A DNA stretch of 61,807 nucleotides, taken from the IMG/VR virus record IMGVR_UViG_3300018025_000004, positions 1 to 61,807 of that record, one strand, 5' to 3'. The position numbers were made by a program, and so were the translations under genes. Shown in pieces: positions 1-59,617 of this stretch. The stretch is from a virus. The notes under the pieces are model-generated. The model saw only the letters and a program-made list of their open reading frames with translations, was not told the origin of the DNA and ran no database searches. Position 1 is the first letter of the stretch; every line of letters begins with the position of its first letter.

Positions 1-125
1 CGGCTCGTCGTGGTGTGTGTATCCACCACGACAGTTTTTCCAATCACGTATTACGACGCCGGCTGTAAGTGACTTAGCGCGGCTCGTCGTGGTGTGTGTA
101 TCCACCACGACAGTTTTTCCAATTA
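1..125. repeat. Terminal 79-bp direct-repeat unit, 1.6 tandem copies (1-79, 80-125)
   Basis: nt 1-67 are letter-for-letter identical to nt 61741-61807. The unit contains inverted CCACGAC cores (TCGTGGTG..CACCACGA). Confidence 0.9.
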
Positions 126-2343: not shown

Positions 2344-2394
2344 AACGCCTTGAAGGCGTTGTCGAGCAAGGGGAATAAAAGAGAGAGAATAAAA
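2344..2394 (+). promoter_or_regulatory. Diverged hairpin (AACGCC-TTGAA-GGCGTT) plus AAAGAGAGAG leader in front of terL
   Basis: Same architecture as the leader modules: hairpin, ~20 nt, AAAGAGAG, then ATG. Confidence 0.4.
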
Positions 2395-3885
2395 ATGACC
2401 TCAATCATTGACTATAAGCCACCGCCGACGATTGAGCAGTTCATCGTGGATTACACGCCGGGCGCGCTGTTCTACGACTGGGTGGTTGGCCCCGTAGGGT
2501 CCGGCAAGACCACCGGGCTGTTCTTCAAGCTGGTGTATCTAGCCAGTCTCCAGTCACCCTCCCGCGATGGCGTCAGACGCTCACGCGCGGTGATCGTGCG
2601 TAACACCATGCCTCAGCTCAAGGACACCACCATCGTGTCGTGGAGCTACTGGTTCAAGGAGGGCGAGGCTGGTGAGTGGAACTTGACGGATAGGACGTTC
2701 ACGCTCCGGTTCGGCGACGTGGAGTGCGTGGTGCTGTTCCGCCCGCTCGATACGCCGGATGACGTGCAGCGCGTGCTGTCACTGGAGGTGAGCTTCGCCA
2801 TCATCGATGAGTTCGTGCAGATCAGGAAAGAGATTGTCGAAGCGCTGTCGGCGCGTCTCGGTCGTTACAAGCTCCCTGACGGCACCAAGCCCACCATCTG
2901 GGGCATGTGGGGTTCGTCCAACCCCTCGACGGAAGATAACTGGTGGTACGACTACCTGAATGACCCTGACACCTGCGAGACCATCGACCTAACGCGTGAC
3001 GACCCGGATGTCCTGCGGGCTAGGCGTGTCATGTCCGACGATACACGCAACGTGCGCTACTTTATCCAGCCGTCCGGTCAACGCCCGGAGGCTGAGAACC
3101 TTGAGAACCTGCCGGGTGGGCGGGAGTATTATACGAACCAGATGAAGGGCAAGAGCGAGACGTGGATCAAGCAGTTCGTGGACGCTGAGTGGGGTTACAG
3201 CGTCAGTGGCAAGCCGGTGGTCAACACGTTCAAGCCGGAGCTGCATATCGCCAAGAAGCGCCTCGTCTATAATCCCCTGCTCCCGCTGATCGCTGGTGTG
3301 GACCCCGGCCTTGCTGGCTCGGCGTTCATATTTGGGCAGCAGGACTTGCATGGACGGCTCAACGTGCTGGGGGAGTGCGTGCAGTCGGGCTATGGCGCGG
3401 AGCGGCTTGTGGCTGAGGTGCTTAAGCCCTACACGCGGCGGCGGTTCCCGCAGGCCAACCTGATCCTCGCGCCTGATCCGGCGGCGGCGAACCGCTCGCA
3501 GAACGACGAGAAGCAGGTGGTGCAGACACTCAGGAAGCACTACCCGGTGAGCATCGAGAGCAACAACCGCTTGCCGCTGCGCTTGAACGCCATCGAGCAC
3601 TTCACAACGAGGCTGGTGGATAGCGGCGCTGCCTTCCAGATCGACCCGTGGGAGTGCCCCATCACGGTGCGGGCGCTCAAGGGTGGTTGGCGGTGGGAGA
3701 TCAACGAGAAGAAGAGTATGATCTCCGGCGATGCCCCGGAGAAGAACGCCTATAGCCATCCCGGTGATGCCCTTGGCTATCTGTGCCGATACTTCCACAA
3801 GCAGACAGAACGTGAGTTGCGGTATGGTCCGCAGTCGGCTATATTTCGGCCACCGAGCTTCAAAAACCAGTACACATATCGCTGA
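2395..3885 (+). CDS. terL: Terminase large subunit
   Basis: Walker A GPVGSGKTT near the N-terminus, ~496 aa, located upstream of the portal gene. ATG 2395 (AAAGAGAGAG upstream) is preferred over the TTG at 2350 in the ORF track. Confidence 0.85.
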   Translation: MTSIIDYKPPPTIEQFIVDYTPGALFYDWVVGPVGSGKTTGLFFKLVYLASLQSPSRDGVRRSRAVIVRNTMPQLKDTTIVSWSYWFKEGEAGEWNLTDRTFTLRFGDVECVVLFRPLDTPDDVQRVLSLEVSFAIIDEFVQIRKEIVEALSARLGRYKLPDGTKPTIWGMWGSSNPSTEDNWWYDYLNDPDTCETIDLTRDDPDVLRARRVMSDDTRNVRYFIQPSGQRPEAENLENLPGGREYYTNQMKGKSETWIKQFVDAEWGYSVSGKPVVNTFKPELHIAKKRLVYNPLLPLIAGVDPGLAGSAFIFGQQDLHGRLNVLGECVQSGYGAERLVAEVLKPYTRRRFPQANLILAPDPAAANRSQNDEKQVVQTLRKHYPVSIESNNRLPLRLNAIEHFTTRLVDSGAAFQIDPWECPITVRALKGGWRWEINEKKSMISGDAPEKNAYSHPGDALGYLCRYFHKQTERELRYGPQSAIFRPPSFKNQYTYR

Positions 3886-3894
3886 GGAGGCCAC

Positions 3895-4197
3895 ATGGGT
3901 GTGCACGAAGCCTTCCACCGCGGTATCGAGACGTTGCGGAAGGCGGGTATGTTGCCCCCACCGCCACCCAATGCTTATGGGCTGAATGGCGTCAGCACCC
4001 CGATGGACGAGGAGATCACGGTGCGAGCGCTCATGCAGAAGCACCTCGGTATGGTTGAGAAGGGCCGTGGGACTGCTGGTGATGCGCAGGTTGATGCTGG
4101 CACGTTTCGGTTGGCCAACCACACTGACCAGCTTGACGCGCTGGAGGCAGCGGCTGCTAACTATCTCGCGAAACAACGCCCCGGTGGGCCTCGATAA
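3895..4197 (+). CDS. Hypothetical protein, 100 aa
   Basis: Strong SD GAGGAGG 5 nt before the ATG. Sits between terL and portal. Confidence 0.6.
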   Translation: MGVHEAFHRGIETLRKAGMLPPPPPNAYGLNGVSTPMDEEITVRALMQKHLGMVEKGRGTAGDAQVDAGTFRLANHTDQLDALEAAAANYLAKQRPGGPR

Positions 4198-4208
4198 GGA
4201 ACTACAAG

Positions 4209-6416
4209 ATGGTCCGAGCTATTGCCCCGGTGGATATTGCCACTCTGACGCCGCCGAACGTGCCGGTCAAGACACCCAAGGATGCGCCGGTCAAGGTCAT
4301 CCATGGGCGTGACCTCAAGCGTGTCGGTGACAAGTTCAACGACCTGTTCACGCAGTACAAGAGCGACAGGCGTCTCGCGGAGCTACGCTGGCTGCGTAAT
4401 CAGCGGCAGTATCTGGGGCTCTATGACCCGGAGATTGACAAGGAGATGTCGCCCAACCGCTCGCGGGCGTATCCGCGTATCACGCGTGTTAAGTGTATCA
4501 GCGTCCTCTCCCGTCTTATGAACCTCATGTTCCAAGGCACCGAGGAAAACTGGACCATCGCGCCGAGCCCGGTTCCCAACTTCAAGGTTGCCGACGTTGA
4601 GGAAGCTATCACCTCCGCGCAGCAAGAAGATCAGGCCGCAGGGGTTCAGAGCACGCTGAGTATCGAGTATGTCAACACCGCGATGCAGCGGCTCGCGCGC
4701 AAGCGTGCGGATGAGCTTATCGACACGATCAAGGATCAGCTCCAAGAGATTGGCGGCAATCAATCGTCGGATTACGTGGCGCTCAACCGGAAGGCTGTGC
4801 AGTCCGGCATCATCTACGGCGTCGGCGTCCTGCGGGGGCCGTATGCCGTGTCGTTCAAGCAGGTGGACGTGTCTCTGGAGCCCATGACGAATAAGCCGGT
4901 GGTGACCGAGCGCACGCGGTATAAGCCGCTGTTCGAGTTCCTGCCGGTGTGGGACTTCTATCCCGACATGAGCGCCAAGACGCTGGAGGGCATGGACGGC
5001 TACTTCACACGCACCGCTATGTCCAAGGCGCAGGTGCGCGCATTGGCTGATCGTGAGGACTTCTTCGCGGACCAGATCAAGGACTATCTCAGGACGAATA
5101 CGGTGGGCAACTACCGCCCCACAGAGTATGAGACCGAGCTTCGCACCATGGGCGTTCGGACCAACGTCAATGAGATGAAGATCGAGACCATGAAATACGA
5201 GATCGTCACATGGCACGGCATGGTGTCCGGCGACTTCTTGCGCATGTGTGGGGTGGATGTCGATGACGACAAGTTGACCGATGACCTTGAGGCCGAGATT
5301 TGGATGATCGCCGGCAACGTCATCAAGGCCGATCTCAATACGTGGCGCAAGCTCGACATGCAGGTCAAGACGCTCCACACGTTCCTGTTCGATGAGGACG
5401 ATACGTCTCCGCTGGGTCAGGGGCTCCCCAACATTGTGCGCGACAGTCAGATGGCCATCAGCGCGGCGACCCGCATGTTGCTGGACAATGCGTCAGTGAT
5501 CTGCGGGCCGAACCTCGAACTGAACACCGATCTGCTGCGCGGCGATCAGGATTTGGCGTCCACGACCGCATACAAGATGTGGTATCGCGAGGGCACCGGC
5601 CCCGATGCGCAGTTTCCGGCTGTCCGCAACGTCGAGATCAACGGTCATCTGGACGAGCTGCTCAAGGTGATCGAGCTGTTCATGAAATTTGCCGATCAGG
5701 AGACCTTCGTGGGGCCTGCGACCGGCGGCGACATGGCGCAGTCACCCTCCGAACCCATGCGCACGGCGGCTGGAGCCTCCATGCTGCGTGGGGATGCTGC
5801 GCTGCCGTTCAAAGACATTGTGCGGCAGTTCGACCGGCTCACCCAGAGCCTGATCCAGAGCCTTGTGTGCTTCAACCGGGCGTTCAACCCCGACAAGGCC
5901 CACGAGGGTGACTATAATATCATCGCGCGTGGCGCGACTTCGCTCATTGCGAAGGAGGTTCGTGGTATGCAGGTTGACCAGCTTGCGCAGACCCTGACGC
6001 CGGAGGAGAAGGATCACGTCGATATGCGTGCGCTTGTCCGGCAACGGATGTTGACGCGGGACTTGGCCGACCTCTTGTTGCCCGAAGACGAGGTTGCGCG
6101 TAATCAAGCGCAGCGTTCGCAGCAGCAGGACCAGCAGCAGCAGCTCGCAACCGCTGCGCAGCAGGCCCAGACCCGCAAGTTGCTGGCCGATGCGTACAAG
6201 AACATCGCGGCTGGCAACAAGAATAACGTCGCGGCGGACGCTCACCAGATCGAGACCGCGCTTAATTTGATGGTGCAGGGGGTGCAAGGTGGTGGACAAG
6301 CTCAACAAGGAGCAGTTGACGGAGCTGCTGGACCGGATCAGCAACCTCAAGGGGACGCCGGTCCACTCGGACCTGATCCGACTGCTCAATTACCGGCTGG
6401 ACAAGTCCAAGGATGA
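4209..6416 (+). CDS. Portal protein
   Basis: 735 aa, in the position between terL and the scaffold/capsid genes. Q-rich C-terminal region. The last 128 nt overlap the next ORF out of frame. Confidence 0.75.
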   Translation: MVRAIAPVDIATLTPPNVPVKTPKDAPVKVIHGRDLKRVGDKFNDLFTQYKSDRRLAELRWLRNQRQYLGLYDPEIDKEMSPNRSRAYPRITRVKCISVLSRLMNLMFQGTEENWTIAPSPVPNFKVADVEEAITSAQQEDQAAGVQSTLSIEYVNTAMQRLARKRADELIDTIKDQLQEIGGNQSSDYVALNRKAVQSGIIYGVGVLRGPYAVSFKQVDVSLEPMTNKPVVTERTRYKPLFEFLPVWDFYPDMSAKTLEGMDGYFTRTAMSKAQVRALADREDFFADQIKDYLRTNTVGNYRPTEYETELRTMGVRTNVNEMKIETMKYEIVTWHGMVSGDFLRMCGVDVDDDKLTDDLEAEIWMIAGNVIKADLNTWRKLDMQVKTLHTFLFDEDDTSPLGQGLPNIVRDSQMAISAATRMLLDNASVICGPNLELNTDLLRGDQDLASTTAYKMWYREGTGPDAQFPAVRNVEINGHLDELLKVIELFMKFADQETFVGPATGGDMAQSPSEPMRTAAGASMLRGDAALPFKDIVRQFDRLTQSLIQSLVCFNRAFNPDKAHEGDYNIIARGATSLIAKEVRGMQVDQLAQTLTPEEKDHVDMRALVRQRMLTRDLADLLLPEDEVARNQAQRSQQQDQQQQLATAAQQAQTRKLLADAYKNIAAGNKNNVAADAHQIETALNLMVQGVQGGGQAQQGAVDGAAGPDQQPQGDAGPLGPDPTAQLPAGQVQG

Positions 6417-6534
6417 GCTGGTAAATTCAGCCCCGGAAGACTTTCTGGTTCGACAAGGCAAGGCCCGCGCTTATAACGAGATGATTGCGGACCTACAACG
6501 GGTGCCCCTCAAACAAGGTGAGACGAGAAAATGA
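6289..6534 (+). CDS. Hypothetical protein, 81 aa
   Basis: GTG start behind AGGGGG. Third-position GC is near 100% in this frame where it overlaps the portal tail. ATGA overlap with the next gene. Confidence 0.55.
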   Translation: MVDKLNKEQLTELLDRISNLKGTPVHSDLIRLLNYRLDKSKDELVNSAPEDFLVRQGKARAYNEMIADLQRVPLKQGETRK

Positions 6535-7439
6535 CCACACAGGCGCTGGAGACCACTGTGACCAAGGCCGAAGAGCCGGTCGATACGTTCGCGGAAGCGT
6601 TCAAGCTCGCAACGCAGGATGATGCGCCGGACGCCGATAACGTTCAGCTTGAGATCGCAAAGGCGGCGGTCGAGGAGCCCGCGCCGCCCGAGCAAACTAA
6701 CTTTGATCCGGTGATCAAGGAGCCCGTGGTGGCTGTCGAGGAGCCCAAGGCCCCGGCGGTCGAGGAGCCCAAGGCCCCGGTGGTCGAGGAACCCAAGGCC
6801 CCGGCGGTCGATGACGGCTTGATGAACCGCTTTGTCGAGGCGCTGACCCAGAAGGTTGCCGCTCCGGCCCCGCAGCAGACCCAGCAGCAGGCCCCGGCGC
6901 TGTTTACGGACGTGGAAGCCAAGCTGCTGCAAGATTATGAGGCGGATTTTCCCGAAGTCGCGCGTGCTGAGGCCCTGCGGCGGCGTGCGGAGAACCAAGT
7001 GCTCGTGCAGCATATCTTTTCGCAGGTTGCGCAGGCGTTGCGCCCCATTCAGGAGGCGCTCGGCGGTGTTGTCGAGACGACCCACGTCGAAAATCTGCAC
7101 AAGGCGGTGCCGGACTACGACGATGTGCGCGATAAGGTCGTAAATTGGGTCGGAACGCAGCCGGCCTACTTGCGTGCTGCGTATGAGCATGTTATCCAAG
7201 AAGGCACGGTCGATGAGGTCGCTGATCTCATCACCCGCTACCGGACGGCGACAGGCGCGGCACCCGCTGCGGCGGCCCCTGTGGCGGTAATGGCCAAGAA
7301 AGATGTCGAGCTGCCTGACACAGCCAAACGAGCGGCTGCTGCGCTGGCCCCAGTCGCATCAAAACGCACGGCGGTCGTGCGAGGATCGGACCCCACTGAC
7401 TTCGATGGGGCGTTCTCGCAGTTCGCCAAAGAGCTTTGA
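6531..7439 (+). CDS. Putative scaffolding protein
   Basis: 302 aa, acidic and Ala/Pro-rich. Three 24-bp in-frame repeats (VEEPKAPA, 6735-6806). Sits between portal and major capsid. Confidence 0.55.
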   Translation: MTTQALETTVTKAEEPVDTFAEAFKLATQDDAPDADNVQLEIAKAAVEEPAPPEQTNFDPVIKEPVVAVEEPKAPAVEEPKAPVVEEPKAPAVDDGLMNRFVEALTQKVAAPAPQQTQQQAPALFTDVEAKLLQDYEADFPEVARAEALRRRAENQVLVQHIFSQVAQALRPIQEALGGVVETTHVENLHKAVPDYDDVRDKVVNWVGTQPAYLRAAYEHVIQEGTVDEVADLITRYRTATGAAPAAAAPVAVMAKKDVELPDTAKRAAAALAPVASKRTAVVRGSDPTDFDGAFSQFAKEL

Positions 7440-7460
7440 TCCTGATAAGAGGAGCCACGC

Positions 7461-8510
7461 ATGTCTCAGATCACGTCTTATGGTGACATCTCGCCCGCAG
7501 TCGCCGCCTACGCGGTGGTGCGTCTGCTCAAGCGCGCGATGCCCTATCTCCACATTGAGAAGTTCGGCCAGACCTACCCCCTGCCGACCAACTCCACGCA
7601 GACCGCCAAGTTCCGCCGTTACTTCCTGCAAGGCGCGGGTGGTTCGGCTGGTACGAACACCAACGGTTCCGCGTTCTATATCCCGCTGGCCACCACGCCC
7701 CTTATCGAAGGCGTGACGCCCAACGGTTCGACCCTCGCCAATCAGGACTATACGGTGCAGCTCGCGCAGTATGGCGACTTCGTGACCATCACCGACGTGA
7801 TCGAAGACACCCATACCGATCCGATCCTCCAGCAGACGACCGACATTCTCGGCGAGCAGGCGGCGGTCACCGTCGAGACCCTGCGCTTCAACGTCCTCAA
7901 GGCGGGTCTGAACGTCTTCTTGGCCGGCAAGGTGGCTGGGCGTGCCCTCGTCGCCACCGCGATTACCCTCGCTGACCAGCGTGCGGTGACCACGGCTCTG
8001 AACCGTCAGAACGCCAAGAAGATCACGCAGGTTGTCGGCTCCACGGCGGACTTCAATACGAAGTCGGTCGAAGCGTCCTACATGGCCATCGTGCATCCCG
8101 ACGTGGAAACCGATCTCCGCAGCATCGCCGGCTTCAAGGTCGTCGCCGACTACGGCCCGCACACCACGCCGTTCGAGGGCGAGATCGGCTCTCTGGAGCA
8201 GGTCCGCTATCTGACCTCCACCGTGTTTACCCCGTGGGCCGATGCCGGCGCTGCCGTCTCCAGCGCGGCGTTCCGCTCGACCTCCGGCATCAACGCCGAC
8301 GTGTATCCGATCCTCGTCTTCGGTCGCGATGCCTTCGGCATTGTCCCGCTGAAAGGCAAGTCGGCCATGACGCCCATGGTGGTCAACCCGAAGCCCGTCT
8401 CCGGCGATCCGCTGGGCCAGCGTGGAACTGTCGGTTGGAAATTGTGGACCGCGACCGTCATCCTGCAAGACGCGTTCATGGCGCGTCTCGAAGTCGCCGT
8501 TTCGGCCTAA
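7461..8510 (+). CDS. Major capsid protein
   Basis: 349 aa with SD GAGGAG, followed by a terminator hairpin. From memory, the N-terminal signature YGDISP..KFGQ..P.P.N....KFRRY resembles N4-gp56-type HK97-fold capsid proteins. Unverified. Confidence 0.75.
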   Translation: MSQITSYGDISPAVAAYAVVRLLKRAMPYLHIEKFGQTYPLPTNSTQTAKFRRYFLQGAGGSAGTNTNGSAFYIPLATTPLIEGVTPNGSTLANQDYTVQLAQYGDFVTITDVIEDTHTDPILQQTTDILGEQAAVTVETLRFNVLKAGLNVFLAGKVAGRALVATAITLADQRAVTTALNRQNAKKITQVVGSTADFNTKSVEASYMAIVHPDVETDLRSIAGFKVVADYGPHTTPFEGEIGSLEQVRYLTSTVFTPWADAGAAVSSAAFRSTSGINADVYPILVFGRDAFGIVPLKGKSAMTPMVVNPKPVSGDPLGQRGTVGWKLWTATVILQDAFMARLEVAVSA

Positions 8511-8516
8511 TCTGGG

Positions 8517-8540
8517 TGGGGGCTTCAGCCCCCATTTCCA
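8517..8540 (+). terminator. Intrinsic terminator/attenuator after the capsid gene
   Basis: Stem TGGGGGC-TTCA-GCCCCCA followed by TTTCC. Confidence 0.55.
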
Positions 8541-8564
8541 CAGTAACTATTCGGAGACAGCATC

Positions 8565-8954
8565 ATGACCATCGACGTTATCGACGTTGCCCTGCACGCT
8601 CCCGCGTTCCCGGTGACCTATACCGGCCCCGGCACTCTGCTGGGCAACCCCTTCTACAGCACCAACCCCGACCTGCTGACCGGCTACTTCACGTCGGACG
8701 GCAACGTTGTGTCGATCCCGCTCGGCTTTGCGCCGCAGGAGATCGAGATCATCAACGAGACTGATGGCATCGTGTGGCAGTGGAACCGCGGCATGTCGGC
8801 CACCCACACCCTCAAGAGCATCGTGGCCGGCGCTTCGTCCCTCGACGCCACCTCGGCCATCGCGGTCACCACCTTCGACGGTCGTTCCACCGTTACGCTC
8901 TCGGCAGCGCTGGCGGCTTCGGCCAAGAACATCATCTACAAAATTCTCGGCTAA
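8565..8954 (+). CDS. Hypothetical virion protein, 129 aa (possible capsid accessory protein)
   Basis: SD GGAGA. Bracketed by two terminator hairpins together with the capsid gene. Confidence 0.6.
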   Translation: MTIDVIDVALHAPAFPVTYTGPGTLLGNPFYSTNPDLLTGYFTSDGNVVSIPLGFAPQEIEIINETDGIVWQWNRGMSATHTLKSIVAGASSLDATSAIAVTTFDGRSTVTLSAALAASAKNIIYKILG

Positions 8955-8976
8955 CGTCCTCCCAGACGTTTCCACT

Positions 8977-9009
8977 GGGGGAGGGTTAATACCCCTCCCC
9001 CATTTTTGT
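8977..9009 (+). terminator. Strong intrinsic terminator
   Basis: Stem GGGGAGGG-TTAATA-CCCCTCCCC followed by ATTTTTGT. Confidence 0.75.
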
Positions 9010-9040
9010 AGGTGCGTACATGGACTGCGGAGCTAGCATC

Positions 9041-9289
9041 ATGACTGACTGCGCGCGCATTAAGCGCCTCGCCAACGGCTATACCATCTCGGTTGACGAT
9101 CCCAAGATCGAGGCCGCGAACCGCAAGCGGAAAGACAGCGTGCCGTGGGTTGATCCGACCCGCGAGTTCGTGTTCGCCAACGTGGCGGACGTGCTGGAGT
9201 GGTTGGAAAAGAACCTCGATAAGGCCTTGCCGGACGACGATTTCGATAGTAGCTTCACGGCTGCATTACTGGAGGACGATGAAAAATGA
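9041..9289 (+). CDS. Hypothetical protein, 82 aa
   Basis: ATG 9041 behind GGAG is preferred over ATG 9020, which has no SD. Confidence 0.5.
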   Translation: MTDCARIKRLANGYTISVDDPKIEAANRKRKDSVPWVDPTREFVFANVADVLEWLEKNLDKALPDDDFDSSFTAALLEDDEK

Positions 9290-9600
9290 GTGAGCCGATC
9301 AAACCGCAGAAGCCCAACCTCGCCGGGCTCTCCAACACCCCGACCAAGACGGTGCGGATCAACGTCGAAGAAAACGACGCCATTCCGCCGTCTGGACTGT
9401 TCGTGTCCCTCAACGGGCGCGCTTATCTGATCCAGCCGGGCAAAAACGTGGACGTGCCTGTCGGCGTTGTTGAAATCCTCGAAAACGCCATCTATGATGC
9501 GCCGCAGGTGGACCCTTCGACTGGCCGTGTTGTCGGTACGTCTTCGCGGCTTCGCTTCCCCTTCCGTCTGGTGCGCAAGGTGGCAGCCACAGAGGACTGA
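9286..9600 (+). CDS. Hypothetical protein, 104 aa
   Basis: ATGA overlap with the upstream gene. Lies in the head/neck gene block. Confidence 0.55.
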   Translation: MSEPIKPQKPNLAGLSNTPTKTVRINVEENDAIPPSGLFVSLNGRAYLIQPGKNVDVPVGVVEILENAIYDAPQVDPSTGRVVGTSSRLRFPFRLVRKVAATED

Positions 9601-9602
9601 CG

Positions 9603-10373
9603 ATGCAGCTCGGCGATCTCCTTGAGGAACTGAGGGAGAATATCCTTCGCGACCGATCCTCCCAGATCGACGGGCCATCCGATCAGCTTTGGACGGACAG
9701 GACGCTTGTCCGCTACATCAACGAGGCCCACCGGCGCTTTGCGCGGATGAGCCTCACCATCCACGACGGTTCCTCGCGTGAGGCGACGTATCTGACCCTG
9801 TTGGACAGCGTCAACACCTACGCGTTGCACCCCTCGGTGCTGGCGGTCGTCTCGGCCAAGATCACAGGCGACACCGCCGACTTGGCGCGCGCAGGCCATG
9901 CGGCCTTCTCGACGTACAGCAAACCCGACCCCTACTTTTTCGATCCGCAGAACCTCTCGACCATGCCGCCCGGTAAGGTGCTGGCTTACTCGACCGATGA
10001 GCAGCTCTCGGAGACGGACGGCGGGGAACGATCCGTAGTTACTTTGACCACCTTTCCGATCCCGGCGGCTCCGTATCTGGCCCAGCCGGTGCGGCTGCGT
10101 GTGGTGCGGCTGCCGCTGAATGATTTTGTGTTGGCCGATCTCACGGCGACCCCGGAGATACCGGAGATACACCATCTGGAGATGCTGGATTGGGCGGCAT
10201 ACCTTGCGCTGCGCATCGCGGACCACGATGCTGGTAACCCGCAGCGCGCCGCTGAGTTTCGCGCTTCGTTTGAGGCCCACGCGGCGCAGGCGAAGAAGGA
10301 CATGATGCGCAAGCTGTTCGCCCCCGCCCAGTGGGGTTTCGGGCGCAACGGTTTCACTTGGGCGGGGAACTAA
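9603..10373 (+). CDS. Hypothetical structural protein, 256 aa (possible head-tail adaptor)
   Basis: Assignment rests on position after the capsid genes. No motif confirmed. Confidence 0.5.
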   Translation: MQLGDLLEELRENILRDRSSQIDGPSDQLWTDRTLVRYINEAHRRFARMSLTIHDGSSREATYLTLLDSVNTYALHPSVLAVVSAKITGDTADLARAGHAAFSTYSKPDPYFFDPQNLSTMPPGKVLAYSTDEQLSETDGGERSVVTLTTFPIPAAPYLAQPVRLRVVRLPLNDFVLADLTATPEIPEIHHLEMLDWAAYLALRIADHDAGNPQRAAEFRASFEAHAAQAKKDMMRKLFAPAQWGFGRNGFTWAGN

Positions 10374-10376
10374 GTT

Positions 10377-11342
10377 ATGACCTCGAAAGTTATGGATATT
10401 AGCGGCGGTGGGATGCCTCCGGTGACCCCGCTGACCCCGGTCATCACCGACAACACCCAAACCACGCCCCCACCCCCGCTCCCGCCGAGACAGGGGTTGG
10501 ATACCGGCACGATTGGCGGGCTGATCGGCGCTGGAGCGGCTGGCGTTGCGAAGGCTGCGCCGTATGTGCAACCTCTCGCGGCGAGGGCGCTTGTGGGCGC
10601 GGGTGCGCTGGGTCTCCCGACTGCGGGTGTTGGTGCGGCTGCGCTGGGTATCCCGCTTGCGGCGGGCGCCGCTGTACCGGCTGTTGGTGGGGTGGTTGGT
10701 CACACGCTGGCAGGCCCCATCGCTGACATGATTATGCCCCAGTCCCCACTGCGACAGCAGCTCAGCCAAGATGCTTCGGCGATTGGCGACGCGTCTGGTT
10801 TCGGCAAGATACAGGCGGCAGTGGGGTTGTACGATAATGCCCGGCTCAACATGTTGAAGAGTGCGTGGGGTGGCTTCGGTGAGGGCATCCAAGGGTTGCG
10901 TGAGGCCATGGCGCAAAAAGGCGTGGTCGGCGGGATGTTGAGCGGGCAACCGTCCGCGCAGGCAGCCCCGGCGCAGGCAGCTCCGGCGCAGGCAGCTCCG
11001 GCGCAGGCAGCTCCGGGGCAGGCAGCTAAGCAGATTGTTCCGGGTAGCCCCGAGCACGGTCAGGCGGCCTTCGCGATGCAGCCTGACCAGTTCAAGCAGT
11101 CGTTGAAAGGTATGACCAACCACGAGGGTATGCAGCTCTTGCAGGCAATGGCACAAATCCCATCGCATGGCGATCAAGCGCTGGCTGAGGTGCACAACCT
11201 GTATAACAAGCAATACGCGGCTGAGCTGAACGATGCCACGTCGCCGGCTGAGCAGCTAAAGGCGTATCAAAATCACGTTGATCGCTTGCTCACCGTCTCG
11301 GTGCGCGGTATTGGTGCTATGAACCCCGATTTACGCAGATAA
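10377..11342 (+). CDS. Gly/Ala-rich virion protein, 321 aa
   Basis: Pro-rich N-terminus, long G/A hydrophobic stretches and four 15-bp in-frame repeats (AQAAP) near 10960-11020. Confidence 0.55.
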   Translation: MTSKVMDISGGGMPPVTPLTPVITDNTQTTPPPPLPPRQGLDTGTIGGLIGAGAAGVAKAAPYVQPLAARALVGAGALGLPTAGVGAAALGIPLAAGAAVPAVGGVVGHTLAGPIADMIMPQSPLRQQLSQDASAIGDASGFGKIQAAVGLYDNARLNMLKSAWGGFGEGIQGLREAMAQKGVVGGMLSGQPSAQAAPAQAAPAQAAPAQAAPGQAAKQIVPGSPEHGQAAFAMQPDQFKQSLKGMTNHEGMQLLQAMAQIPSHGDQALAEVHNLYNKQYAAELNDATSPAEQLKAYQNHVDRLLTVSVRGIGAMNPDLRR

Positions 11343-11361: not shown

Positions 11362-14300
11362 ATGGCACAGATCACCGATGTCCAGCAGCCCGCGTTGCCG
11401 GCTGTTGCCAACCTCCCGTCGTTCGCACCACCTCGGGGGTTTGGGCGGGCGTCGTTGGATCAGCTCAATGGTGGTCAACCATCGTTGATTGGTGGCGCAC
11501 TCTCCGCTGGCACACATGAGCTGGGTAGCCAGTTCGGCGGGTTTGTCAGCGCGCTCGGTACGACGCTGGGCATGAACGGCGTCTCTGACTGGGGTCAGCA
11601 GGTTGCGCAGTCGCAGGCAGCGGCTGCGGCGCAGAATGGCCGACCGGACTTGGATGCTGACCCGTGGTCGCCGTCTGGTATGGCTTACGGGCTGGTTAAG
11701 GGCCTGCCGATGTTGACGGGTGTCGCGCTTGCACATCGTCTCGGTGCGAAGCGGCTGGCTCCTGCTCTCGGTGTGTCTGAGGGCGTCGGTGGCACACTCG
11801 GTGCTGGTGCGGCGTTGTATCCCGGCATGGTCGGCAGCAACGTCGAGACTGCGCGCAAAGCCAACGGAGGGGAGCTGACACCGAACGCTGCGGCTGCCTC
11901 GCTGGCTATGGGTGTCCCGGAGGCGGCGATTGGCTCCATTGTGCCGGGTAATGTCGATAAGATGCTCGCGCGCGGTATGGCCGGCGACTGGCTGTCGCGG
12001 CTCGGGAAGGGTGCCGCGATTAACGCTGGTATGGGTGGTGTGCAGGGCGCTGCCAACACCGTGTTCAACCAGTTCCTTGGTGACCAGAGCCGCCCCATCG
12101 CGGATCGGGCGAATGACGTTGTGCAGTCGGCGCTGCAAGGCGCGTTTCAGGGCGGCGTCATCGGTGGCGTCTTCGGTGTTGTGGGTGGTCGGAAGCGTGT
12201 TGCCCCGACCGCGACGGATGACGCCCTGACGAGCGCTGCGACGGTGCCGGGCGCGACGGATGCCGAGCCCGCGAAGACCACTGTTGGCCCTGCTGACGCG
12301 AGCGGTGCTGCGCAGGTGGGCCTCGACCTCCCCGAGCAGCAGACGCCGCAGATGGCGGATCACCCGCTTGCGCCTGAGATGCAAGGCCCGACGATCCCGC
12401 CCGAGATGGTGAATGGCCGGCAGATGTCGCTGTTCACGCCCGACGAAGAGGGTGCGCGGCAGGCCGACATTTTCAAGATGCGCGGCGTGGTGCGTGATGC
12501 GCTTGGCAAGGCTGAGCTGGACCCCAACACCGATACGTCCTTCGTGGATAATCTGAACGCCACCAACACGCCGGAGCTGATTAAGGCCCTACGCGAGCAG
12601 GTAACGCGCTACGACCGCGACAAAGACGGTGCGATGCCTGCGTGGTTCAAAGAGCTTGCCGCTGCGCATGGCGTTGTGGACGAGACGGGCAAGACGCGTA
12701 ACCTCACCGATGAACATGCTGACCTGCTCACGCAGATCGAGACACAGAAGGGTGCCGGGAACGGTACGTATCAGACACTTTTGGAGCGCGCCGCGCAGCG
12801 TAAGGCGGAAGGCAATGACGCTCGGCAGACCGTCCTATTGGATCAAGCAAATACGATCCGCGCGCGAAACGATGAAAAGGTCGCAGCCCTCCAAAAGCGA
12901 GCCGACGAACTAACGCCGCTCATGGACCAGCACGCGCAGGCTGACGCGCTGCCGGATAAGTTCTCGCCGAAGCAGGTGCCTGACACGCTGAGCGACAAAC
13001 CGAAGGCCGCAGCGCTCTATCAGCAGATGGAGCTTTTGCGCGACCACTCGCCTGATCCCAAGATCGCTGAGCGTGCTGCACGGGCGTCTGATTTGCTGCG
13101 GTCGGGGCGGCAGGACCAGATGCGCCGTGCAGCGCAGATTGCGCAGGACTTCGCTGATCGTGTGGCGCGTGAGTGGGGTTACAGCGACAGGGACAAGCCG
13201 GTCGCTCCTGCCGTGGACGAGGACGCTGCCCGGCGAGCCGCTGACGACACTACCCAGCCGGCTCCGGCCCCTGACACGACCGTGGACGAGGACGCTGCCC
13301 GGCGAGCCGCTGACGACACTACCCAGCCGGCTCCGGCCCCTGACACGACCGTGGACGAGGACGCTGCCCGGCGGGTGGCCGCCGAGGCTCCCGAGACGCC
13401 TGCGGAGCGGGAAGCCGCAGTAACTGCGCCCCCGGCCACCCCGGATGCCCAGCCTGTGGTCGCTGCCCCGGAGGGCATCCCGTTCATGGTCACCAAGGCC
13501 ATGCGTAAAACGCTGCTGGAGCGGGGCTATACGGTTGACGACGTGCGCAACATGACGCCTGCGAAGGCGCGGGAGGCGTTGCAAGCTCCCACGGCTCCCA
13601 CAGCTCCCCCGGTTGTGGATAATCCCACCCCGTCGCCCGAAGCGCAGATGAGGGTTCGGGATGAGATTGCCCCGTCGATGTTGGAGGCTCAGCGTAAGGA
13701 GCTTGAGGATCACGTCGCGCGCACGCAGGCGGATCGTGCCACGCGGTTGCAGGCTGAGAGGCAGGCCGCACTTAGCCAGACCGGGGCGTATCAGCCGCCC
13801 AAGAAGAGCATCTCCCTCGGGGGTATCCAGCGGTCGAAGGACGCACTGGCGACCATGGCTGAGCCGGCGGGTCGGACGCAGGCTGACGTGGATGCCGAGC
13901 ACCTGATCTCCAATGGTGCGACCGGCGCGCAGGTGCTCAAGCATATTGAGGACACCACCACCGATCCGAACTTGCGCCGTCTGGCCAAGAAGATGCGGGA
14001 GAGGGGCCTTGACCCCACAATCTCGTATGGCACGCGGGATGAGATTGAGGCGGATGCGCAGGCGACGCAGGGTAAGACCTTCGACGCCACGAACGCGGAC
14101 GCGGCGTATAACGAGACGACGAACCATGTGTGGCTGGCATCGCGTGAGAACACGCACCAGAATATCATGCACGAGATGATGCACTCCGCGACGTGGAAGG
14201 CGATTGAGGCCGGCGGACCCATCGCGAAGCGTATGAACGACCTGTTTGAGCAGGTTAAGCGGTCGGCAGCAGTGCGTCTGGATAAGGCTGCGGGCAAAGT

Positions 14301-17300
14301 GCCGTATGGTCTGACCAACCTGCACGAGTTTGTTGCTGAGGCGTTCACGAACCCGTGGTTCCGTGACACCCTCTCTAAGGTCACGATGCCCGGTGAGACC
14401 AAGACCCTCTGGGGCAAGTTCAAGGATGCGGTTAAGCGGTTGTTCAACCAGCCAGAGAAGACCCGCACGGCGCTCGATGAAATTATGGACATGGGGCAAG
14501 ACCTCATGGACGAGCACCAGAAGATCGACGTGTCGCCGCAAAGTGAGGCGATCATGGCCAAACGCGTTGCGGATGAGCATGAGAAAGTCAGCATAGTAGG
14601 CGCAGGCATCTTCCATCAAGCGCAGGATAGCCTCAGCAAGCTGGCCAACCTCGTCTCAAATCCGAAAGAGATGGGCACGAAGATCAGTGCGTTCGCTGAC
14701 TACAATATGACCCGCACACAGATGATCCGGCGTCATGCGGCTGAGTTTGCGTCCGGCGCAACGCAGCACATGGAGGATGCGTGGGCAGCGCACACGGCCA
14801 TTGGTCAAGCTGCGGCAACGACCGGCTTGCATGTTAAGGTCGCCATCGACGGGATTAAGGATGTTGCGACGCGTGATGCGGCGCTGCGGGATGCGTTTTG
14901 GTCGAGCCAGATCGGGGCGCACCCGTTCAAGACGTTTGCGGAGCAGCCGAACCTCCACAACCGTAAGGATCGGGCGATCATTCAGCCGGAAATCGACCGC
15001 ATCGCGAAGGCGTTCAACGACGTGTACCGCCAGAAGGGCGCGCGTGACGCGATCACGCAGGCGCACGCGGCTGGTGAGGCGCAGAACGCATCGCAGATGA
15101 TGCTGGGGCTGCACGAGTTTATGCGCCGGGAGAAATTCGGTGACTTGATTACCGATGCGGACGTGCACGACCAGTTCGCGAATAATGCCGATGCGCACAC
15201 CCCGGCGACTGCGGCTACGTTCTATAGGGCTGCGCTGGATAAGCAGGTCGCCAACATCAAGCAGTTTGTGGATGCGCAGGAAGGCTCTGTCGCCCATCTG
15301 CCCCAGAACGATAGTGCGCGGCAGGCTGTGACGGCGCAGCTCAAAGACTTGAAGGGTCAGCTCAACGCAATCAGCAGTAACTTGATCACCCACGAGCACT
15401 CGCCGTATATGCCTTCCGGTCGTGAGGGTGAATACGCGGCGGCGTTCACGTTGAAGCTCGGCGACGATGGGCAAATCCACCCGCAGGCGTTGGCGGCGTT
15501 ACAGGACGGGCTTGCTGCGCGCGGCCTGAATGTCGGCATCAATCAGCATGTGGATAACCCGAGTGTGTTTATTCGGGTGGGTACGCTCGACAAAGCGCAG
15601 CAGATTGCCGATCTCGCGCAGGATTTGGGTAAGCGCGGCTTGCTGGACGAAAAGGGCGATGCTCCACTGGCAAAGCGGTTGGATGACGATGCCATGGCGA
15701 GCCGCACGCGGCCTGCGTGGGTGAAGCAGATGATGGACAGTGTGGCGCAGGATACGCGTATTCCCGAGGAGCAGCGGGCCGCGATCCATGACCAGCTTCG
15801 TCAGACGTGGGCTGACATTTTGCCGTCGCGTGACGTGGTGCAGCTCGCCCGCAAAAACGTCCAAGGCTTCTCCACTGACGTGGCGCGGGCGCTGGATCGT
15901 CGTAACAGTGTGTGGGCGAACGGGCTTGCCAATCTCGTGACGCAAGAGCGCAAGAACGTCGCGTTTGGTGAGATGCGGGATGATATTGGCAATCTTCAAC
16001 GGCAGCCCGATGTATCCAAGACGGTCAGCGCGCAGAACTGTCTCAATGAGCTGGCTACGCGTGAAGTTGGCCGTGACTGGCGTCCGCAAACGACAGGGGG
16101 TGATACCTTCCGCTCCGCGCTCCATGCGTGGCAGCTCGGCGTGTCCCCCGCGTATTTTGTGCTGGAGCTGTCGCAGGCCCCCATGTTCGTGCTTCCGGCT
16201 ATGTCTGCGGAGCGGGGTATTGCGAAATCCACTGCTGCGCTGACCAGCAACCTTGCTATGACGATTAAAGTCATGCGCGCTATTTCGAGTGGTCCGCTGG
16301 GCAAGTACGGCGTGTTCACCGCGCAGGGGTTGAAGGACGCGAATATCCCGCCGGCTATCGCTGAGCATCTCCTCAAGTGCAACAATCGTGGCTGGTTTGA
16401 AAACTCAGCCACGCGTGAGCTTGGGATGTCTGCGGACGGTCGCGCACAAACCACCACCCAGAAGGCAATCCACTGGGCGAACTTGTCCGCGCTCTACACC
16501 GAAGTTGCCATGCACGTAAACACGGCTCTGGCCGTGAAATCGCTGCACGATACCAAGCCATTCGCGGAGGGGCTGGATGCCGCGACTGACCGCATCATGG
16601 AGAAGGGTCACTGGAAGTGGGGCGCAGGAGAGAACGCGCGCTCCATGGGCAAGCAGGGTTTTGCCGGCAAAGCGACGCCCTATCTGACGCAGTTCATGGG
16701 CTGGCAGATGAAGGCTCTTGAGACCTATTACCGCGAGCTGCACACTGTGTTCAGCGGCGATGCCTCGCGTGATGCGCGAATACAGTCCGCTAAGTTTATC
16801 GGCGGTCATATGGCTGCGGTTGTGGCGTTCTCCGGCTTGTCCGGTTTGCCCACGACGCCGCTTATGGGTCTGGCGTCGAAGGTCATGAACACGCTGACCG
16901 GGTCGGATCAATACGATTTCGAGCAGAACTATCGTAGTTATCTTACAAGCATGTTCGGCAAGGAGTTCGGTGACGCCATGGCGCGCGGTCTTCCGCATCT
17001 GGCCGGATTTGACATGAGCGACGTGGGTGATGAGGGCTTGGTCCCCGGCGGTCGGTTCCTCGCAGATCAGCGGAAGTGGCAGGATGCTTCCAAAGACGCC
17101 GCGTGGCGGTCGATGGGTGCGGGTATCGGCTTCGCGAGCAACGCTGTTGGCGCGATGCAGGATTGGTCGATGGGTAACCCCGAAGCAGCTCTCCGCAAGT
17201 TGCTGCCGGCCACGCTGCGTAACCCGTATGAAGCGTACATGATGCACGAGCATGGCTACGTCAACAACTCGGGCGTGAAGGCACCGATCCAGCCGACGAG

Positions 17301-17664
17301 CGCGGATGTGTGGAAGAAAGCTCTGGGCCTTGAGCCCGCGAGCATGAAGCAGAATGAGGACTTACGCGATCAGGCGGAACGCACCGAGACCATGCAGCAC
17401 AACATCTCCGGTGCCATTGAGGCGAATATCAAGCGCGCAATATCGTATGGTGATGGCTCCTCGTTGCAGGATGCGATACAGAAGGCGCAGGCGTTCAATC
17501 AGACCCACCCGAATACCCCTATCGACGTGAACAAGGCGGCGGTGGGTGTCCAGATGGAGAACGCACGCGCGATTGGGCTGGGGCTGCCTGCTGGCACCGG
17601 CAAACCGACAGATGCGCGCTTGCGCACACGCCTCGACCCGTATTATATTCCGGGTAAGTCCTAA
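11362..17664 (+). CDS. Giant virion-associated multidomain protein (2100 aa) with an ArdC/zincin-like HExxH motif
   Basis: Single uninterrupted ORF. Gly-rich N-terminus. A 69-bp repeat is present 2.4 times. The motif NIMHEMMHSATW...LHEFVAEAF lies near residues 938-995. Confidence 0.8.
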   Translation: MAQITDVQQPALPAVANLPSFAPPRGFGRASLDQLNGGQPSLIGGALSAGTHELGSQFGGFVSALGTTLGMNGVSDWGQQVAQSQAAAAAQNGRPDLDADPWSPSGMAYGLVKGLPMLTGVALAHRLGAKRLAPALGVSEGVGGTLGAGAALYPGMVGSNVETARKANGGELTPNAAAASLAMGVPEAAIGSIVPGNVDKMLARGMAGDWLSRLGKGAAINAGMGGVQGAANTVFNQFLGDQSRPIADRANDVVQSALQGAFQGGVIGGVFGVVGGRKRVAPTATDDALTSAATVPGATDAEPAKTTVGPADASGAAQVGLDLPEQQTPQMADHPLAPEMQGPTIPPEMVNGRQMSLFTPDEEGARQADIFKMRGVVRDALGKAELDPNTDTSFVDNLNATNTPELIKALREQVTRYDRDKDGAMPAWFKELAAAHGVVDETGKTRNLTDEHADLLTQIETQKGAGNGTYQTLLERAAQRKAEGNDARQTVLLDQANTIRARNDEKVAALQKRADELTPLMDQHAQADALPDKFSPKQVPDTLSDKPKAAALYQQMELLRDHSPDPKIAERAARASDLLRSGRQDQMRRAAQIAQDFADRVAREWGYSDRDKPVAPAVDEDAARRAADDTTQPAPAPDTTVDEDAARRAADDTTQPAPAPDTTVDEDAARRVAAEAPETPAEREAAVTAPPATPDAQPVVAAPEGIPFMVTKAMRKTLLERGYTVDDVRNMTPAKAREALQAPTAPTAPPVVDNPTPSPEAQMRVRDEIAPSMLEAQRKELEDHVARTQADRATRLQAERQAALSQTGAYQPPKKSISLGGIQRSKDALATMAEPAGRTQADVDAEHLISNGATGAQVLKHIEDTTTDPNLRRLAKKMRERGLDPTISYGTRDEIEADAQATQGKTFDATNADAAYNETTNHVWLASRENTHQNIMHEMMHSATWKAIEAGGPIAKRMNDLFEQVKRSAAVRLDKAAGKVPYGLTNLHEFVAEAFTNPWFRDTLSKVTMPGETKTLWGKFKDAVKRLFNQPEKTRTALDEIMDMGQDLMDEHQKIDVSPQSEAIMAKRVADEHEKVSIVGAGIFHQAQDSLSKLANLVSNPKEMGTKISAFADYNMTRTQMIRRHAAEFASGATQHMEDAWAAHTAIGQAAATTGLHVKVAIDGIKDVATRDAALRDAFWSSQIGAHPFKTFAEQPNLHNRKDRAIIQPEIDRIAKAFNDVYRQKGARDAITQAHAAGEAQNASQMMLGLHEFMRREKFGDLITDADVHDQFANNADAHTPATAATFYRAALDKQVANIKQFVDAQEGSVAHLPQNDSARQAVTAQLKDLKGQLNAISSNLITHEHSPYMPSGREGEYAAAFTLKLGDDGQIHPQALAALQDGLAARGLNVGINQHVDNPSVFIRVGTLDKAQQIADLAQDLGKRGLLDEKGDAPLAKRLDDDAMASRTRPAWVKQMMDSVAQDTRIPEEQRAAIHDQLRQTWADILPSRDVVQLARKNVQGFSTDVARALDRRNSVWANGLANLVTQERKNVAFGEMRDDIGNLQRQPDVSKTVSAQNCLNELATREVGRDWRPQTTGGDTFRSALHAWQLGVSPAYFVLELSQAPMFVLPAMSAERGIAKSTAALTSNLAMTIKVMRAISSGPLGKYGVFTAQGLKDANIPPAIAEHLLKCNNRGWFENSATRELGMSADGRAQTTTQKAIHWANLSALYTEVAMHVNTALAVKSLHDTKPFAEGLDAATDRIMEKGHWKWGAGENARSMGKQGFAGKATPYLTQFMGWQMKALETYYRELHTVFSGDASRDARIQSAKFIGGHMAAVVAFSGLSGLPTTPLMGLASKVMNTLTGSDQYDFEQNYRSYLTSMFGKEFGDAMARGLPHLAGFDMSDVGDEGLVPGGRFLADQRKWQDASKDAAWRSMGAGIGFASNAVGAMQDWSMGNPEAALRKLLPATLRNPYEAYMMHEHGYVNNSGVKAPIQPTSADVWKKALGLEPASMKQNEDLRDQAERTETMQHNISGAIEANIKRAISYGDGSSLQDAIQKAQAFNQTHPNTPIDVNKAAVGVQMENARAIGLGLPAGTGKPTDARLRTRLDPYYIPGKS
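13213..13376 (+). repeat. 69-bp in-frame tandem repeat, 2.4 copies (VDEDAARRAADDTTQPAPAPDTT)
   Basis: 13213-13281 and 13282-13350 are identical; a partial third copy follows. Confidence 0.9.
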
Positions 17665-56497: not shown

Positions 56498-56815
56498 ATG
56501 GTTGACGAACCGAATGTCGAAGTCGATGCGGCCGTGATCGAAATTACCATCCGGGTCGCTGGCGTCAATGGGCACCAGCCGCTGACGCCGCAGAACGCCG
56601 CCGCCGTGGGCGTTGACCCTGCGGCGGCTCAGCCGGGCAGCGCCTCGGCCAGCGACCAGACCACGGCCGCCGTGGGCGTTGACCCTGCGGCGGCTCAGCC
56701 GGGCAGCGCCTCGGCCAGCGACCAGACCACGGCCACCACGACCGTCCAGCCCAGCGCCGGCCAGAACGCCGCCCAGAACCCCGCCCAGAACCCCGCCCAG
56801 AACCCGGCGGTGTAG
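56498..56815 (+). CDS. Possible plus-strand repeat protein, 105 aa
   Basis: GAGAGGA 9 nt before the ATG. Two 66-bp repeats and three AQNP repeats. Its 3' 121 nt are antisense to the transposase-like ORF. The two frames share wobble positions, so codon bias cannot decide between them. Confidence 0.35.
   Translation: MVDEPNVEVDAAVIEITIRVAGVNGHQPLTPQNAAAVGVDPAAAQPGSASASDQTTAAVGVDPAAAQPGSASASDQTTATTTVQPSAGQNAAQNPAQNPAQNPAV
56600..56805. repeat. 66-bp tandem repeat x2 (56600-56731) and 12-bp GCCCAGAACCCC x3 (56769-56805)
   Basis: Exact nucleotide repeats. Confidence 0.9.
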
Positions 56816-58555: not shown

Positions 58556-58675
58556 CGCTCTCTTTGATCACGTTCTCTTTTGTCACGTTCGCCAAACGCC
58601 CTTGGGCGTTATGGCTCGGTGATGTTCGGTGATGTTCGGTGATGTTCGGTGATGTTCGGGACACCATGTCCCAAA
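58556..58675 (-). promoter_or_regulatory. Hairpin leader module (core 58595-58610), four 10-bp GGTGATGTTC units and the operator TTCGGGACACCATGTCCCAAA (58655-58675)
   Basis: Exact repeat family. The operator abuts the stop codon of the 232-aa gene. Confidence 0.7.
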
Positions 58676-59376: not shown

Positions 59377-59609
59377 GTTTATTCTCTCTTTTGTCACGTT
59401 CTCTTTTGTCACGTTCTCTTTTGTCACGTTCGCCAAACGCCCTTGGGCGTTATGGCTCGGTGATGTTCGGTGATGTTCGGTGATGTTCGGTGATGTTCGG
59501 TGATGTTCTCTTTTGTCACGTTCGCCAAACGCCCTTGGGCGTTATGGCTCGGTGACGCGCGCAAGAGCGCAGGCCTGAGGCCGAGCACGAGCAAGCCACG
59601 AGGATGGGG
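59377..59609 (-). promoter_or_regulatory. Two tandem leader modules (cores 59436-59451, 59528-59543), GTCACGTTCTCTTTT x3, TGATGTTCGG x5 (59461-59508) and the 60-bp outer element (59551-59609)
   Basis: All are exact or near-exact copies of sequences at 58.1-58.7 kb, 60.4-60.7 kb and 1.35-1.47 kb. Confidence 0.75.
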
Positions 59610-59617
59610 CGCAGTAG

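Follow-up and report, generated by a model that had tools for sequence, protein, structure and literature searches.

The 61,807-nucleotide window analyzed here is a stretch of viral DNA (positions 1 to 61,807 of IMG/VR virus record IMGVR_UViG_3300018025_000004) whose plus strand carries, directly behind a block of virion genes, a giant open reading frame (ORF). An original prediction, made from the letters alone, had read its product as a virion protein with an ArdC/zincin-like core, placed where N4-type phages carry their virion RNA polymerase. The ORF is uninterrupted, starts with ATG and has a weak AGGA about 12 nt 5' of the start codon. A HMMER search with the last 1200 residues of the product found 1682 protein clusters at E<=1e-3, 395 of them at E<=1e-30, and nearly all of the matching clusters are 2000-2750 residues long with collinear C-termini. 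The giant ORF is therefore a genuine gene and no chance open frame in GC-rich DNA. Its product is most likely a large internal virion (ejection) protein that carries a predicted zincin metallopeptidase of the anthrax lethal factor (LF) type. Comparison with 164 collected relatives divided the protein into four parts, namely an N module, a linker, an HExxH module and a C module (Table 1).

Table 1. Features of the giant gene and of the genes upstream of it, with the evidence for each
Feature	Position	Strand	Evidence
Giant gene, 2100 aa, probable internal virion (ejection) protein of the gp16/IVP-D class (IVP-D, internal virion protein D)	11362-17664	+	ORF, 1682 homologous clusters, synteny
N module, Gly/Ala-rich (aa ~40-275)	11479-12186	+	Match in 107/164 homologues
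Linker, acidic, Ala/Pro-rich, poorly conserved (aa ~301-860)	12262-13941	+	Composition
69-bp x 2.4 tandem repeat in linker, 23-aa unit	13211-13373	+	Tandem Repeats Finder (TRF) score 326, 100% matches
Predicted zincin metallopeptidase module, lethal-factor type (aa 861-1070)	13942-14571	+	Conservation, AlphaFold 2 (AF2) model, profile, Foldseek, hhalign
HEMMH, predicted zinc ligands H937 and H941, predicted catalytic base E938	14170-14184	+	Aligns with LF HEFGH
YGLTNLHEFVAEAF (Y982-F995), with the LF Tyr728 counterpart and E989 as predicted third zinc ligand	14305-14346	+	LF alignment
C module, all-alpha (aa ~1175-2100)	14884-17661	+	Match in 155/164 homologues
NCBIfam NF032893 'tail-700' / PLxRFG domain (aa 1446-2064)	15697-17553	+	E 1.6e-50
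Upstream structural genes	2350-11342	+	Pfam and PHROG matches; Rollin counterparts 32-45% identity
terL (large terminase)	2350-3885	+	
Portal	4209-6416	+	
Scaffold-sized gene	6531-7439	+	
Capsid (Phage_capsid_4)	7461-8510	+	
SU10-type adaptor, one of five post-capsid genes	9603-10373	+	Pfam/PHROG
321-aa gene directly before the giant gene	10377-11342	+	No family match

Searches with the whole protein gave noise or no match against Pfam (E<=1) and PHROGs and, with phmmer, no match in the PDB; RNA polymerase, methylase and helicase domains were not found (Pfam E<=1, NCBIfam). The profile of a full-length family alignment returned coiled-coil and low-complexity noise only from the PDB. Since it also missed the zincin matches described below, the middle of that alignment is poor and the negative is a weak one.

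In the HExxH module, HEMMH lies at residues 937-941 and LHEFVAEAF at residues 987-995, and the HExxH...E pattern that had first drawn attention to this region is thus present. Its numbering as H941/E942 was slightly off, since HEMMH spans 937-941 and the predicted catalytic Glu is E938. We aligned the module from 38 sequences (25-37% identity) and found H937, H941, E989, E993 and N997 to be invariant and E938 to be kept in at least 90% of the sequences. An AF2 model of the module (predicted local distance difference test, pLDDT, 87.5; predicted template modelling score, pTM, 0.83) has a zincin fold: two helices at the N-terminus precede a three-stranded sheet, which is followed by the HExxH helix (residues 81-100 of the model, where HEMMH sits) and a later helix with E989.

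A profile of the module was used to search all PDB sequences. Three matches were significant, and all were large phage ejection proteins: 23sg_S ('gp10', E 3e-14), 9sfn_G ('internal virion protein', E 5e-13) and 8vb2_A (E 5e-10), which is gp48 from Pectobacterium phage PhiM1, an ejection protein that forms tetramers. The next in order were LF chains (E 0.008-0.015). In the alignment with LF, HEFGH falls on HEMMH, and LF YGRTNEAEFFAEAF, which ends at residue 741, falls residue for residue on YGLTNLHEFVAEAF. In LF this stretch provides Tyr728, which is catalytic, and Glu735 as third zinc ligand; their counterparts here are Y982 and E989. As far as the sequence can tell, the module is apparently intact, with a complete predicted active site consisting of H937, E938, H941, Y982 and E989. 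When the model was compared with the PDB by Foldseek, LF came first (E 1e-2, probability up to 1.0), N4 gp50 (9pnr) was eighth (E 4e-2, probability 0.84) and other zincins were lower. LF (MEROPS M34) is itself a secreted toxin with extra substrate-binding domains. The likeness to it consists of HExxH followed about 40 residues on by YG.TN..EF.AEAF and of the top structural match, while the identity is only about 15%, with a profile E value of 0.008 and a template modelling (TM) score of 0.35-0.40.

The same data bear on the type of zincin. The ArdC or MPTase-PolyVal type that had been proposed found no Pfam model match in the giant protein (E<=1) or in the 38 relatives (E<=0.1), and Foldseek, which had been suggested as a check, listed no ArdC structure among its 50 PDB matches, with LF on top. 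SprT-like, ATLF and Tox-MPTase4 models appeared only below threshold, ATLF in three of the 38 family members. Because of this absence in Pfam and of the profile and Foldseek matches to LF and N4 gp50, the evidence speaks for a zincin but gives the ArdC type no support, and we read the module as a zincin of the lethal-factor type from its sequence profile and predicted fold. With ArdC/MPTase-PolyVal (PF18818) it has in common a zincin within a protein delivered alongside invading DNA (PMC5512222); it differs in that the ArdC-N single-stranded DNA-binding domain is missing (Pfam, all 2100 residues). By profile the zincin is present in 81 of 143 full-length relatives, and in many of the remaining ones an HExxH stands at the corresponding position.

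Iyer et al. 2017 (PMC5512222) were the first to report a zincin in N4 gp50, within its encapsidation region, and a 2026 cryo-electron microscopy study describes gp50 as an ejection protein in which subdomain C1 (2124-2375) carries HExxH and is followed by C2, 1125 residues with no known structural relative (PMC13434306). We compared our zincin family by hhalign with N4 C1, taken from an alignment of the C-terminal domain of N4 and 11 relatives (12 sequences), and obtained 97% with an E value of 9e-11 over 140 columns. The comparison with 30 aligned relatives of PhiM1 gp48 gave 98.6% and an E value of 7.5e-16. These results indicate that the HExxH modules of N4 gp50 C1 and of the solved gp16-like proteins form a single lethal-factor-like zincin lineage and that the analogy with N4 is more than positional. 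Outside the HExxH region, no BLAST or phmmer similarity was found between the giant protein and gp50. The C module had no similarity to PhiM1 gp48 or N4 C2 by hmmsearch with shuffled controls, hhalign or Foldseek; for C2 the hhalign value was 0.1%, and 9pnr was absent among the 50 Foldseek matches listed for the C-module model. The gp16-class proteins (PhiM1 gp48, 8vb2; 9sfn; 23sg) are large, helical virion-core proteins that are ejected at infection (PMC11440229). They share the HExxH...HEF module but are about 1250-1340 residues long and come from Autographiviridae; the likeness covers about 120-130 residues, and neither the N module nor the C module of the giant protein showed any similarity to them. 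The HExxH...HE(F/M/L) module of 8vb2_A (PhiM1 gp48, locus L002, 6957-10748), 9sfn_G and 23sg_S is homologous to both the giant protein's zincin and N4 C1; a peptidase in gp16-like proteins is unmentioned in the structural publications on PhiM1 and a phiKMV-like phage.

The C module is where the statement that most of the protein matches nothing that could be named proved wrong: residues 1446-2064 match NF032893, with a score of 172.3 bits against a cutoff of 100 and with positions 64-660 of the 681 in the model covered. The same tail-700 domain ends the 4841-aa gp30 of the Ochrobactrum podophage POI1126 (923 bits) and occurs in the 2184-aa giant protein of Pseudomonas phage Rollin (366 bits). 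Our own C-module hidden Markov model (HMM) also matches the C-terminus of Skulduggery gp28 (3695 aa) and that of H66 gp60 (3787 aa; E 3e-49). The latter is annotated 'PLxRFG domain-containing protein', and its database record states 'verified by mass spectrometry as part of the virion'. A tblastn search with the POI1126 C-terminus found 73 phage records, including F116, H66, LKA5, PBC5, PEp14, Klebsiella LASTA and Vibrio douglas 12A4, whose labels vary between methylase, DarB-like, transglycosylase, structural protein and PLxRFG. The PLxRFG giants of F116/PBC5-type podophages (H66 gp60, F116 p60, POI1126 gp30, Skulduggery gp28) and that of Rollin share both the C-terminal tail-700 domain and a place late in the structural gene block. 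Those of H66, POI1126 and Skulduggery differ from ours in size (3700-4800 aa) and in having methylase and SNF2-like segments, which are absent here, while the Rollin protein, of similar length, is the nearest and has a weakly similar zincin (HEMGH at 1052; independent E value 0.016). In its record the Rollin giant (locus L006, 9366-15920) is labelled 'oligopeptide ABC transporter, periplasmic oligopeptide-binding protein OppA', almost certainly a mis-annotation given the tail-700 match and the HEMGH. Published virion proteomics of the Bcep22 and JC1 giants were set aside because Bcep22 gp75 has no tail-700 domain, and the publications on POI1126 and Shewanella phage Y11 contain no proteomic data on their giant proteins.

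An AF2 model of residues 1170-2100 is mostly helical (pLDDT 78, pTM 0.69). A Foldseek search of the predicted viral structures in BFVD with the C module found the final chunks of giant proteins from phages, with E values as low as 1e-20 and TM about 0.6; these proteins are annotated as large-polyvalent-protein-domain, methyltransferase or helicase proteins. Weaker matches (E 3.5e-6 to 1e-4) were the 'Internal virion protein D' entries for the Roseobacter phages CRP-5 and CRP-4, and a 1416-aa protein of Vibrio phage ICP2. By hhalign, the C module and ICP2 gp6 ('internal virion protein', a single sequence) gave 80.5% and an E value of 1.3e-5 over 435 collinear columns, and ICP2 gp6 scored 20 bits with the HMM as compared with at most 5.5 bits for 200 shuffles. 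Hardies et al. 2016 had joined HMMs stepwise into an extended family of T7 IVP-D (gp16), whose members include H66 gp60, PBC5 p23, douglas 12A4, the C-terminal domain of N4 gp50, epsilon15 gp17 and phiRIO-1 gp37 and whose proteins host domains destined for the cytoplasm (PMC4819975). Our C-module results agree with that family. The comparison covered H66 gp60, ICP2 gp6, the CRP-5 models and PhiM1 gp48; the relation is strong to H66 gp60, moderate to ICP2 gp6 and CRP-5, and none to PhiM1 gp48 outside the zincin. The giant protein is also, like IVP-D, a large and strongly helical protein encoded among virion genes. It belongs to the tail-700/PLxRFG giants and through them probably to the extended IVP-D class, and is no virion RNA polymerase, DarB or ArdC.

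The N-terminus is Gly-rich, as the original prediction had noted, with 15-18% Gly in each of the first three 100-aa blocks. The N module is rich in GxxxG-type motifs, for example GGVIGGVFGVVGG, and 17 of 27 glycine-zipper-like motifs lie within the first 300 residues of the protein; the consensus of the module contains GRPDLE..PW, LGVPEAA and GGVFGG. The closest relative (P0001) has an overall identity of 89%, which is made up of 34-47% in residues 1-300 (11362-12261) and 91-100% from residue 300 on. The N-terminus is therefore mosaic, and this comparison suggests that the Gly-rich N module was exchanged by recombination. The module was also found inside POI1126 gp30 (E 2.5e-20), was absent from H66 and Rollin when searched with its own HMM, and had no significant similarity to the N4 N-terminal domain, PhiM1 gp48 or the N4 C-terminal domain. 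One 16-aa Gly-rich BLAST match to N4 gp50 229-244 (E 0.3) was rejected as compositional resemblance only. The N module is a candidate for a membrane-interacting or partner-binding part.

The linker is poorly conserved, with its residues 461-860 matched in only four of the 164 homologues. Within this low-complexity region the 69-bp repeat encodes VDEDAARRAADDTTQPAPAPDTT. The repeats had been called recent, and the perfect array is indeed there; it is not special, however, because the closest relative has the 23-aa repeats too, with a few substitutions, and perfect arrays are common genome-wide. We therefore see in it a property of the linker and of the genome and no sign of recent novelty in the giant gene. 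The domains in the middle of the protein also vary among relatives, one of which (P0006) has ART-PolyVal, an ADP-ribosyltransferase domain, and another (P0017) InPase, a pyrophosphatase, together with LPD39. Since relatives place these domains mid-protein, the exchangeable middle fits a delivery scaffold with swappable cargo. Polyvalent proteins in the sense of Iyer et al. 2017 combine effector domains of differing activity in a single delivered chain; by this yardstick the giant protein has a single recognizable enzymatic domain, while relatives on the same scaffold have ART-PolyVal, InPase, LPD39, methylase or helicase domains.

The surroundings of the gene point to a virion function. The exact 67-bp direct repeat at the two ends of the window (1-67 and 61741-61807) indicates that it is probably a complete phage genome of about 61.7 kb in circular assembly. 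ORF calls together with Pfam and PHROG matches bear out the proposed order of portal, scaffold, capsid, five small genes (129, 89, 104, 256 and 321 aa) and the giant gene, and also its likeness to the N4 late region (portal gp59, gp58, gp57, capsid gp56, gp55-gp51, gp50). The capsid protein has a weak similarity to N4 gp56 (E 3e-6). With gp50 the giant gene shares the last place in this order and the homologous zincin of C1, and in both proteins the N-terminal region is Gly-rich and leads into a long linker of low complexity; in gp50 a linker of about 100 residues (907-1006) joins the lipid-binding N-terminal domain to the rest. It differs in having no T7-like single-subunit RNA polymerase domain (Pfam) and in a C module unlike C2. 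By its structural module the closest cultured genome is that of Rollin (61.3 kb), which has the same order and an identity of 42% for terL, 38% for the portal, 45% for the capsid and 32% for the adaptor. Synteny is kept in distant relatives (24-29% identity) on contigs of 64.6 kb and 135 kb. A megablast search with 22 kb against phage genomes found no match. No RNA polymerase domain was found in ten other large ORFs that were scanned, where the sole domain match was an SNF2 helicase on the opposite strand, and no tRNA genes were found in the window.

Domain identities, homologies, synteny and the conservation of the predicted catalytic residues are shown by these analyses. Given these, the most likely product of the gene is a large ejection protein from inside the virion of a short-tailed phage of about 62 kb, in the slot of T7 gp16 (IVP-D) and N4 gp50, and we consider it probable that it is an ejected virion protein of the gp16/IVP-D class carrying a zincin. 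Packaging, ejection, a membrane role, protease activity and its target we infer as follows. A few copies would be packaged in the capsid, for which the tail-700/PLxRFG module may be needed since it is the sole part common to the whole family. At infection the protein would be threaded through the tail, largely unfolded, either before the DNA or together with it. The inner part of a trans-envelope conduit would then consist in part of the Gly-rich N module and the all-helical C module, with the N module in contact with the membrane or a partner protein; since the N module is mosaic between near-identical phages, this contact may be specific to the host or partner. The long linker would be a flexible tether, as in N4 gp50, with which the middle domain could get to the place where it acts. 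The zincin would be the single enzymatic cargo in this protein, whereas that of N4 is an RNA polymerase, and would act after delivery, cutting either the giant protein itself or a host protein early in infection. An active protease seems to us the likeliest reading of the domain, at about even odds.

Several points weigh against this reading. The phage appears to be uncultured, and the presence of the protein in its virions is deduced from comparison with relatives. The link to IVP-D consists of one moderate hhalign match (80.5%), Foldseek matches to predicted models and the published stepwise HMM argument, and no solved structure in the PDB matched the C-module model by Foldseek. No strongly hydrophobic transmembrane helix was predicted in the giant protein. 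For the zincin, no Foldseek match reached E 1e-3, the best being about 1e-2 with TM 0.33-0.40, and PhiM1 gp48 (8vb2) was absent among the 50 matches listed. The gp16-like proteins align solely from the HExxH helix onward (gp48 380-513), and N4 gp50 reportedly enters the capsid without being processed (PMC5512222). The conserved metal ligands could also be structural rather than catalytic.

This last point leads to an alternative that we find unlikely, though less so than the others, in which the HExxH module is a non-catalytic remnant, a metal site for folding or assembly of the internal core, and the giant protein is purely a conduit and packaging component. It would account for the solved gp16-like proteins, which carry the module with no protease activity reported and some of which have lost parts of the Y...EF.AEAF signature, and for the N4 region being needed for encapsidation, as has been reported along with the lack of processing (PMC5512222). 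The general base E938 is nevertheless kept across the family as described above, the model shows with confidence the half of the fold that holds the N-terminal sheet, and sequences with an overall identity of 25-37% conserve the full signature YG.TN.HEF.AEAF together with the Tyr728 counterpart; a purely structural site need not keep such a signature. A bolder extension would have the ejectosome deliver the zincin as a working protease of the lethal-factor type, with the same activity overlooked in N4 gp50 C1 and in the solved gp16-like proteins of phiKMV/KP34-type phages; this seems to us possible yet rather doubtful. The protease would then cut a host defence or envelope protein in the first minute of infection, or would cut itself to release or dismantle the conduit, and the hypervariable N-terminal 300 residues would adapt the protein to host-specific partners. 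The zincin might instead be the wall-breaching activity of the ejectosome, cutting peptide cross-links of peptidoglycan or a periplasmic envelope protein in place of the transglycosylase of T7 gp16 or phiKMV gp36. Podophage internal proteins often have a muralytic domain, once a D,D-endopeptidase (PMC4819975), and a scan of the giant protein and of neighbouring structural genes turned up neither a lysozyme nor a transglycosylase domain. That scan covered part of the genes in the window, and a muralytic domain may lie elsewhere; moreover, refolding of N4 gp50 C1 has been proposed to take place in the cytoplasm (PMC13434306). The substrates of lethal-factor-type zincins, which are endopeptidases, are proteins. 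None is known to cut peptidoglycan, and we regard such a role as improbable.

The two remaining alternatives concern the protein as a whole. The ejected effector of the original prediction holds in so far as the zincin is homologous to in-capsid ejection proteins and the C-terminal domain to H66 gp60; the anti-restriction role suggested with it is not supported. Such a role would make the giant protein a DarB/ArdC-type effector, injected with the DNA and blocking host restriction enzymes. Polyvalent proteins have been proposed to counter host defences (PMC5512222), and the C-module relatives POI1126 gp30, Skulduggery gp28, Itty13 and PBC5 are annotated as DarB-like and have methylase and SNF2-helicase-like segments. 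Their label derives from the very domains that the giant protein lacks, as methyltransferase and helicase, which mark the DarB-like proteins of P1, and ArdC-N were all missing (Pfam E<=1, NCBIfam), and the MPTase-PolyVal model did not match; we think this role hardly probable. That the gene encodes a tape measure or some other part of a long phage tail, with HExxH by chance, might be suspected from the large size, the strongly helical C-terminal half and the position in the structural operon. What had been named as the outcome to look out for, a conventional tape-measure protein with its motif outside a zincin fold, was not seen: no tape-measure family matched in Pfam or PHROGs, and HExxH is invariant or nearly so across the family and lies inside the zincin fold. 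The neighbours include a podophage adaptor of the SU10 type, POI1126, which has the same C-terminal domain, is a documented podovirus, and F116/H66 are treated as a podovirus group (PMC4819975). We therefore reject this explanation.

The ejection-protein class, the idea of polyvalent proteins and the N4 zincin have already been published, and the family has very many members. Novelty may lie, to a limited extent, in the lethal-factor-like signature including the Tyr, in the previously unremarked homology with modules in solved gp16-like proteins, and in the compact single-enzyme architecture. The giant protein is a compact example of a huge, mostly metagenomic family, with an N module, a linker, one enzyme and tail-700, and the whole catalytic signature is kept in its family. 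This raises the question, which could be approached in Rollin, PhiM1 and N4, of whether podophages inject an active protease and what its target is. The analysis also corrects the labels 'OppA', 'DNA methylase' and 'DarB-like' on proteins that share only the delivery scaffold.

Further observations were made elsewhere in the genome. The 321-aa gene contains in-frame tandem arrays (36 bp x2 at 10592-10662; 15 bp x4.8 at 10956-11027). With counterparts of very different size in relatives (186-419 aa), it may encode a further internal or tail protein that evolves fast. Directly 3' of the capsid gene is a strong GC-rich hairpin with a T-run (8976-9002), as expected for a terminator or attenuator that raises capsid expression over that of downstream genes. 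Perfect or near-perfect short tandem arrays are frequent (2258-2338, 37595-37982, 56600-56734, 58616-58659, 59457-59508 and 61148-61291). They include 16 bp x5 just 5' of terL, 25 bp x5.8 near the genome end, two arrays of TCGGTGATGT and 54/108-bp arrays within a coding region. Finally, dispersed inverted copies of 60-120 bp that are 83-98% identical link the genome ends (about 1350-1480 with about 59400-60740), and these may be regulatory repeats of an early or intergenic region.

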